This document shows, in pieces, positions 38,488-38,662 of a stretch of DNA of 64,000 nucleotides. The stretch lies in assembly GCF_003334305.1 (NCBI RefSeq), contig NZ_QOWS01000006.1; one strand, 5' to 3'. The first letter of the stretch is position 1. Each line of letters starts with the position of its first letter. The DNA comes from Escherichia coli (GTDB lineage Bacteria; Pseudomonadota; Gammaproteobacteria; Enterobacterales; Enterobacteriaceae). The notes under the pieces are model-generated. The model did no database searches, was not told where the DNA came from, and saw only the letters and a list, made by a program, of their open reading frames with translations. The position numbers and the translations under genes are program-made.

Positions 38488-38662
38488 TAAGGCTTGATAA
38501 CTCCCCCAAAATAGTTCGAGTTGCAGAAAGGCGGCAAGCTCGAGAATTCCCGGGAGCTTACATCAGTAAGTGACCGGGATGAGCGAGCGAAGATAACGCA
38601 TCTGCGGCGCGAAATATGAAGGGGGAGAGCCCTTATAGACCAGGTAGTACACGTTTGGTTAG

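Follow-up and report, generated by a model that had tools for sequence, protein, structure and literature searches.

ERIC elements have been known since 1990–91, and copies in E. coli were reportedly catalogued in 2006 by Wilson and Sharp. Members of the ERIC/IRU/RU-1 family (Sharples & Lloyd 1990; Hulton, Higgins & Sharp 1991; Wilson & Sharp 2006) are palindromes with conserved primer sites and 7-bp terminal repeats, which are intergenic but transcribed, occur in multiple copies per genome, and vary in presence between strains. The E. coli consensus for ERIC/RU-1, 127 nt long and published by Wilson & Sharp (2006), is reproduced in Table 1a of Delihas 2007 (PMC2759123), and the sequences of the ERIC-PCR primers ERIC1R and ERIC2 appear verbatim in 246 papers. 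Published descriptions give the elements TA ends and a duplicated TA (PMC2229807; PMC3184786). Yersinia ERICs located near stop codons lower the amount of the upstream mRNA in an orientation-dependent manner, an effect ascribed to an RNase E site in their right-hand repeat (De Gregorio 2005, via PMC2229807 and PMC10969869). The Correia elements of Neisseria (NEMIS/CREE) are also small palindromic mobile repeats co-transcribed with neighbouring genes, and their hairpin RNA is cleavable by a double-strand-specific RNase and can alter mRNA levels (PMC10969869). However, they belong to an unrelated sequence family and have TA duplications and sometimes promoters or IHF sites, none of which were seen in the element described here. 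The small RNA CssrA of Shigella flexneri 301 was detected as a Northern band of about 110 nt, and its 5' end was calculated from the size of the band (PMC3071730).

The locus analysed here is the spacer between rpsB and tsf in the window, which is the complete 64-kb stretch of E. coli DNA under study. According to the RefSeq annotation of identical loci, rpsB, encoding ribosomal protein S2, occupies positions 37763–38487, and the downstream tsf, encoding elongation factor Ts, positions 38745–39596, both on the plus strand. The spacer is therefore 257 bp long. At 38536–38559 on the plus strand it contains the 24-mer AAGCTCGAGAATTCCCGGGAGCTT, in which the recognition sequences of XhoI (CTCGAG, 38539–38544), EcoRI (GAATTC, 38544–38549), and SmaI/XmaI (CCCGGG, 38549–38554) abut, each overlapping its neighbour by one base. 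The hexamer AAGCTC (38536–38541) is the reverse complement of GAGCTT (38554–38559). The motif, its position, the abutting sites, the flanking inverted repeat, and the length of the spacer had been noted in the preliminary description of the locus and were exact on re-reading. The motif is very probably native DNA belonging to an ERIC element that was inserted into the spacer and is mainly a tolerated selfish insertion, with restriction sites that are incidental and with an influence limited, at most, to the processing or stability of the 3' end of rpsB mRNA.

The motif lies in the 5' arm of the hairpin of a complete, 127-bp ERIC (IRU/RU-1) element at 38501–38627 on the plus strand, bounded by the terminal inverted repeats CTCCCCC and GGGGGAG. 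This segment aligns with the published E. coli consensus without gaps and is identical to it at 99 of 127 positions (78%; blastn E = 1e-31 for the consensus against the window), and thus the motif corresponds to ERIC positions 36–59. As a check on the identity of the element, it was verified that the similarity runs over all 127 bp and not over the motif alone. The reverse complement of primer ERIC1R matches positions 38542–38563 of the plus strand in 19 of 22 bases, with mismatches at 38543, 38548, and 38552, and overlaps the EcoRI and SmaI sites. The primer ERIC2 matches the start of the 3' arm, 38564–38585 of the plus strand, also in 19 of 22 bases. Its mismatches are at 38564, 38575, and 38579, and the latter two positions pair with 38552 and 38548, respectively. 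The consensus of eight aligned copies contains GTGAATCCCCAGGAGCTTACAT followed by AAGTAAGTGACTGGGGTGAGCG, which are the reverse complement of ERIC1R and then ERIC2.

Copies of the repeat were searched for with a 139-bp query (38494–38632), and a place was counted at blastn E ≤ 1e-3. The family is dispersed over 2–16 places in every E. coli genome, with a median of ten and a total of 49,043, and the rpsB-tsf copy is the only one in the window. In genomes without the rpsB-tsf copy the best matches are intergenic paralogs with 75–85% identity. The paralogs that were fetched are located in the yjbE-yjbF, hsdR-hsdM, pepB-iscX, and pgk-fbaA spacers, upstream of gyrA, and beside a mobH relaxase gene. 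The last of these copies, in E. coli strain Z135-6, adjoins the MobH relaxase gene on an apparent integrative element, and 38 ERIC-like places are on plasmids, which indicates that ERIC copies also ride on mobile DNA.

By all sequence and structure criteria except the TA termini and duplication, the segment 38501–38627 is a member of the ERIC/IRU/RU-1 family. It shares with the family the length of about 127 bp, the consensus and primer sites, the long stem-loop palindrome, and the multi-copy dispersal, as well as an intergenic position within a transcription unit (rpsB-tsf) and presence/absence polymorphism between strains. The terminal repeats CTCCCCC (38501–38507) and GGGGGAG (38621–38627) pair with each other and provide the seven contiguous pairs listed for ERICs (PMC2229807, Table 1). 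The rpsB-tsf copy differs from the family in that its termini are CTCC...GGAG rather than TATA...TATA, so that the 5'-TA-3' ends are missing, and that instead of a TA target-site duplication the comparison with the "empty" site reveals a replacement of 11 bases by 7. Furthermore, its internal helix GCUCG/CGAGC is in a different register from that of the family consensus. The ERIC nature of the motif is already-known biology, and earlier catalogues are hardly likely to have overlooked a complete K-12 copy. Among the papers searched, none relevantly links ERIC and rpsB, and no experiment on the rpsB-tsf copy was found.

Two further features overlap the element. The Rfam family of the Vibrio RNA AS5 (RF02818) matches 38500–38623 weakly, with 24.6 bits and E = 0.031, far below the gathering score, and judging from this match the AS5 family may itself have been built on an ERIC-like repeat. 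A mechanically called open reading frame of 350 amino acids on the minus strand (38439–39491) runs through the ERIC and opposite tsf, and its ERIC-encoded part (…LPPFCNSNYFGG…) resembles the 42-residue "RU-1 peptide" of Delihas 2007 (PMC2759123). This antisense reading frame is almost certainly not a gene.

The ERIC folds into a hairpin that includes the motif. When the transcribed strand of the element is folded alone as RNA, a single long hairpin is predicted with an energy of -65.2 kcal/mol (z = -8.5). The opposite strand reaches -50.3 kcal/mol, so the transcribed strand folds better by 15 kcal/mol, and the single-stranded DNA reaches -30.4 kcal/mol. The fold of the complete spacer has a z of -6.9 and also places the motif within a hairpin, in agreement with the preliminary description, which had assigned the motif to a hairpin in a structured spacer. 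However, AAGCTC and GAGCTT are not mutual partners in the predicted fold. Instead, the predicted pairs of the motif are GCUCG (38538–38542) with CGAGC (38584–38588), UCCCGG (38548–38553) with CCGGGA (38574–38579), and GCUUAC (38556–38561) with GUAAGU (38566–38571). The pairing was evaluated in a covariation test with eight ERIC copies, 45 pairs, 500 shuffles, and controls with slid partners. Standard pairs occupy 93.3% of the pair cells compared to 82.5% in the shuffles, none of which reached the observed value (0/500), and 16 of the 45 pairs have changes on both sides, compared to 8.6 in the shuffles. When the partners were slid by one to three columns, the pairing fell to 29–41%. The covarying pairs 70/101 and 74/97 lie inside the motif. 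The test shows that the symmetry of the hairpin is maintained, and an RNA hairpin and a DNA-level symmetry of the mobile element are indistinguishable by covariation.

The restriction sites can be traced to differences from the consensus. The corresponding consensus segment AAGTGAGTGAATCCCCAGGAGCTT differs from AAGCTCGAGAATTCCCGGGAGCTT in 6 of 24 positions, namely 38539, 38540, 38541, 38543, 38548, and 38552. An excess of such differences within the motif was considered and rejected, because the rest of the element has 22 mismatches in 103 positions (Fisher p = 0.79). The EcoRI site arose from GAATCC through the change of C to T at 38548, and the partner position 38579 changed from G to A, which converts a C-G pair to U-A. 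This change of pair 70/101 was seen only in the rpsB-tsf copy. The SmaI site arose from CCCAGG through the change of A to G at 38552, and the partner position 38575 changed from T to C, which converts an A-U pair to G-C (pair 74/97). The same change, and the CCCGGG that results from it, are also present in the yjbE-yjbF and hsdR-hsdM copies. The XhoI site was formed by four clustered changes within 38539–38543, which produce in the minimum-energy fold a perfect 5-bp helix of GCUCG (38538–38542) with CGAGC (38584–38588), whereas other ERIC copies have an interrupted 3+2-bp helix in this place. At least two of the six changes are compensatory and keep the long ERIC hairpin paired. Since the six substitutions are ordinary and partly compensated, the restriction sites are by-products of the divergence of a hairpin repeat, in which the substitutions happen to spell CTCGAG, GAATTC, and CCCGGG.

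The preliminary description had remarked that the motif looks like a cloning scar, but considered it probably native and proposed an alignment with wild-type E. coli. A 291-bp query (38470–38760) was compared with 5,426 complete E. coli genomes and matched 5,425 of them. The match is full-length with at least 99% identity in 4,095 genomes, including K-12 MG1655 and O157:H7, and the segment is 100% identical in isolates from human, dog, chicken meat, and water. A 44-mer with the motif at its centre occurs exactly, and in a single copy per genome, in 3,986 genomes, including K-12 MG1655, RP437, and O157:H7. In six out of six genomes carrying the long form of the spacer, which were picked for small differences from the window, the 24-mer is unchanged and the variation is elsewhere in the element. 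As a check on the native status, the 24-mer was also found in pre-cloning-era or environmental isolates. The proposed alignment thus gave exact identity to wild-type E. coli, MG1655 among them, which confirms the earlier verdict of a native sequence.

The idea that the rpsB-tsf spacer of a laboratory strain was engineered and retains a synthetic polylinker or a cloning scar draws on appearance only, as three familiar six-cutter sites abut within a short inverted repeat, as do the XhoI, EcoRI, and SmaI sites of plasmid multiple cloning sites. Unlike in plasmids, the sites occur here without vector context and in wild isolates, with the identical sequence present in thousands of them, of human, animal, food, and water origin. 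From the ERIC consensus, which the surrounding 127-bp element matches end to end, each site is separated by one or a few natural-looking substitutions, and two of the substitutions are compensated by changes in the other arm. By chance, about two such clusters are expected per 64 kb. When a strict cluster was defined as three palindromic hexamers with start spacings of at least 5 and at most 12 from the first to the last start, the window contained one, compared to 2.25 ± 1.65 in 300 dinucleotide-preserving shuffles, 85% of which had at least one. With a looser definition there were 14 clusters in the window and 26.8 ± 6.5 in the shuffles. An over-representation of palindrome clusters was therefore rejected, as the counts in the window are below the shuffle means under both definitions. 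The motif is conspicuous through the familiarity of the enzymes, without statistical excess. On these sequence comparisons engineering is excluded, and its probability is negligible. A unique native palindrome, serving as a locus-specific protein-binding or structural site and not derived from a repeat, could account for the richness of the motif in palindromes and for the single exact copy of the 44-mer per genome. However, the likeness to other genomic copies and to the ERIC consensus spans 127 bp and thus extends well past the motif, and the whole block is missing from related genomes in which its flanks are conserved, so that such a site is extremely improbable.

The native ERIC origin of the motif matters chiefly as a negative result, because a scar-like sequence in a core ribosomal operon is genuine wild-type DNA, and genome screens should consequently not treat it as a sign of contamination or engineering. 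The case further illustrates that a palindromic mobile repeat can yield a "polylinker" by chance while its hairpin is kept. Another chance "polylinker" is located 800 bp away inside tsf, where CAGCTGGATATCGCGA (39336–39351) combines PvuII, EcoRV, and NruI sites in 16 coding bases.

The rpsB-tsf spacer of E. coli exists in two lengths. About 1,330 genomes match the 291-bp query only from query base 158 onward. The native spacing of 257 bp given in the preliminary description applies to the ERIC-bearing lineages, but not to about a quarter of E. coli genomes, which have a spacer of 134 bp as measured in two of the approximately 1,330 partial-match genomes. The long and short alleles were aligned with MAFFT, and the left junction was read by eye and confirmed with the alignment of the outgroups. 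The alleles share a left anchor, ...GAGTAATAAGGC, and a right anchor, GAGCCCTTATAGACC..., which enclose 133 bp in the window and ACGCTCGTAC in the short allele. The block that is present or absent is therefore 133 bp long and not a mismatch block limited to the 24-mer, which had been named as a possible sign of engineering. In a set of 60 evenly sampled genomes, a query representing the short junction matched in one piece over its full length in 15, and in two pieces spanning 229 bp in nearly all the others.

Spacers of other Enterobacterales were obtained from a genome scan with an EF-Ts query, in which six useful outgroups were among the matches listed: Enterobacter sp. Ag1, Enterobacter sp. 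Bisph1, Klebsiella sp. BIGb0407, Superficieibacter electus, Yersinia artesiana, and Photorhabdus caribbeanensis. No Escherichia (such as E. albertii or E. fergusonii), Shigella, Salmonella, or Citrobacter was among these matches. The ERIC is absent from the rpsB-tsf spacers of all six of the outgroups among the matches listed, which are 116–149 bp long. Five of these six have the three-hairpin layout of the short E. coli allele, which begins with a small hairpin directly behind the stop codon (TAAGGCACGCTCG...GAGCCCTTAT), continues with another (AACCAGG...TTGGTT), and ends with the GC-rich terminator, whereas Superficieibacter has lost most of the first two. The post-stop hairpin AAGGC...GCCCTT is kept across the range from E. 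coli to Yersinia and Photorhabdus, can still be made out in Aeromonas and the Pasteurellaceae, and is reduced in Superficieibacter. The layout common to the outgroups and the short E. coli allele indicates that the short allele is ancestral, and since the ERIC-less genomes carry the small conserved hairpin in place of the element, the ERIC is a derived insertion in the top of this hairpin.

The remains of the ancestral hairpin are recognisable on both sides of the ERIC on the plus strand. The left base, TAAGGC (38488–38493), directly follows the rpsB stop and is common to ERIC-less E. coli and other Enterobacterales. The right base, AGCCCTTAT (38628–38636), was identified by comparison of the long and short alleles and the outgroups and from the fold. 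In the predicted fold of the long allele, the hairpin base still pairs across the ERIC through GGCU (38491–38494) and AGCC (38628–38631). Between the left base and the ERIC lies the junction sequence TTGATAA (38494–38500), which is without a counterpart in ERIC-less genomes. The ancestral ACGCTCGTACG was replaced and not duplicated, as the 11 bases of the hairpin top gave way to the unrelated 7-mer TTGATAA. The ERIC thus entered the top of the small post-rpsB hairpin in an ancestor of part of E. coli, while earlier-splitting lineages and other Enterobacterales have retained the small hairpin alone.

The termini of the element, CTCC and GGAG, are flanked by TTGATAA and AGCCC. TATA...TATA ends are present in five of the eight aligned ERIC copies, and in the rpsB-tsf copy the outermost four terminal pairs (38501–38504 with 38624–38627) are all changed on both sides relative to the consensus. 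A model of clean insertion with TA duplication was rejected for this copy, since its junctions are without TA ends or duplication. The junction looks degraded or atypical, which is not counter-evidence to homology.

The long allele is present in K-12, BL21, IAI1, SE11, O157:H7, O111, O103, and 042, and the short allele in UTI89, ST131, Nissle (EcN), IAI39, and SMS-3-5. We take the strains with the long allele to represent phylogroups A, B1, E, and D, and those with the short allele phylogroups B2 and F. The distribution of the alleles fits a single insertion after the separation of the B2/F lineage. The short allele of one E. coli strain of ST80 is divergent, with 93.6% identity and a 2-base deletion in the second hairpin. 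Its terminator has a shorter stem and an extended T run (TTTTTTTTTC), and the allele may come from a divergent lineage. The clean natural polymorphism with and without ERIC in the 3' UTR of an essential gene could provide a ready-made test of the effect of an ERIC on the fate of an E. coli mRNA.

The part of the spacer downstream of the ERIC is common to both alleles. The second conserved hairpin, GACCAGG...TTTGGTT at 38638–38660 on the plus strand, has an identical fold in the long and short alleles and is kept in Enterobacter, Klebsiella, Yersinia, and Photorhabdus. It is followed at 38661–38688 of the same strand by an intrinsic terminator, which was identified by a scan, with limits of 38661–38683, and by folding, has an 8-bp GC stem and then a T run, and represents the rpsB-tsf attenuator. 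The second hairpin, the terminator, and the tsf leader fold alike with and without the ERIC. According to the predicted folds, the transcript of the ERIC would form a single long hairpin that stacks on what is left of the old one, without affecting the second hairpin, the attenuator, or the region of the tsf ribosome-binding site.

Both mRNAs, rpsB and rpsB-tsf, share one common promoter, the monocistronic form has its end at the attenuator that precedes tsf, and roughly a third of transcripts read through (PMC2834685). Long-read studies agree on the transcription of rpsB-tsf (PMC6131387; PMC11347139). A simple scan of the rpsB-tsf spacer found no promoter-like site that could drive CssrA or tsf. 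The single rpsB promoter and the attenuator located downstream of the ERIC place the element within every rpsB transcript, in the rpsB 3' UTR and in the intercistronic RNA of rpsB-tsf. The region upstream of rpsB contains a match to the t44/tff RNA (RF00127; 83.5 bits) at 37648–37734, which is the known S2 autoregulatory leader region.

The Rfam model of CssrA (RF02798) matches positions 38573–38682 of the plus strand, from the 3' arm of the ERIC to the stem of the attenuator, with 136.2 bits compared to the gathering score of 93 and E = 5.9e-29. Like the CssrA of Shigella, this segment overlaps the 3' arm of the rpsB-tsf ERIC and the attenuator. However, it excludes the 24-mer, downstream of which it lies, and the 5' end of the Shigella RNA is an inferred one. 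Table 1 of the source publication (PMC3071730) gives map and rpsB as the neighbours of CssrA, whereas the Rfam model maps to rpsB-tsf, and it looks as if the label is wrong or the gene calls differed. CssrA is probably the 3' end of the rpsB mRNA and not an independent gene. Its production by processing of the rpsB mRNA, cut near the ERIC loop, would fit these positions and is plausible given the spacer scan without a promoter-like site.

The rpsB-tsf ERIC begins 13 nt past the stop codon and resembles the Yersinia ERICs (De Gregorio et al. 2005) in its location just past a stop codon, its co-transcription with both neighbours, and its RNA hairpin, which is predicted here. The right-hand arm, for which an RNase E site was proposed in Yersinia, also contains an AU-rich stretch, GAAAUAUGAAG. 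The reported effects on expression are those of the Yersinia copies. The E. coli copy might have been exapted as a regulatory RNA that controls the operon through endonuclease cleavage at or close to the hairpin (by RNase E or RNase III), which would either set the stability of the rpsB mRNA or release the approximately 110-nt CssrA ending at the attenuator. With either version, ERIC-bearing lineages would differ from B2/F in the S2:EF-Ts balance or would have an extra small RNA. The start of the CssrA model at 38573, just past the apical loop of the ERIC, and its end at the attenuator agree with the band of about 110 nt from S. flexneri (PMC3071730) and speak for such recruitment, together with the plausible origin of CssrA by processing, the lowering of upstream mRNA by Yersinia stop-codon ERICs via an RNase E site, the position of the copy 13 nt after the rpsB stop, and the better folding of the transcribed strand. 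In contrast, the 5' end assigned to CssrA comes from a calculation on the band size and not from mapping, a quarter of E. coli and the examined outgroups (among the matches listed) manage without the element, the folds of the attenuator and the tsf leader are unaltered by the insertion, and the conservation among the carriers is no higher than recent common descent predicts. An exapted regulatory role of this kind is therefore rather unlikely. Slightly less likely still is the combined form, in which the ERIC was recruited as a lineage-specific regulator whose hairpin cleavage both sets the rpsB mRNA stability and frees a CssrA derived from the 3' UTR. If true, the S2:EF-Ts balance or a small-RNA activity in Shigella and in phylogroups A, B1, D, and E would be unlike that in B2 and F. 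The lack of the ERIC in a quarter of E. coli and in the examined outgroups (among the matches listed), and the structural insulation of the insertion, point to a tolerated selfish insertion. We infer that the rpsB-tsf ERIC is mainly such an insertion and mostly neutral, and that at most it may modulate the processing of the 3' end or the stability of rpsB mRNA, in analogy to the effects via RNase E that are reported for Yersinia ERICs.

A second insertion polymorphism is found two genes downstream, in the pyrH-frr spacer. The window and strain 042 have 145 bp (40519–40663) where IAI39 and SMS-3-5 have just ATC, and the spacer measures 291 and 149 bp, respectively. The insert is predicted to fold into a long hairpin (z = -4.0), and as a dispersed repeat it occupies a median of five places per genome. 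A comparison with ERIC gave no significant similarity, and the insert may correspond to the repeat named "RSA" in the K-12 genome paper.
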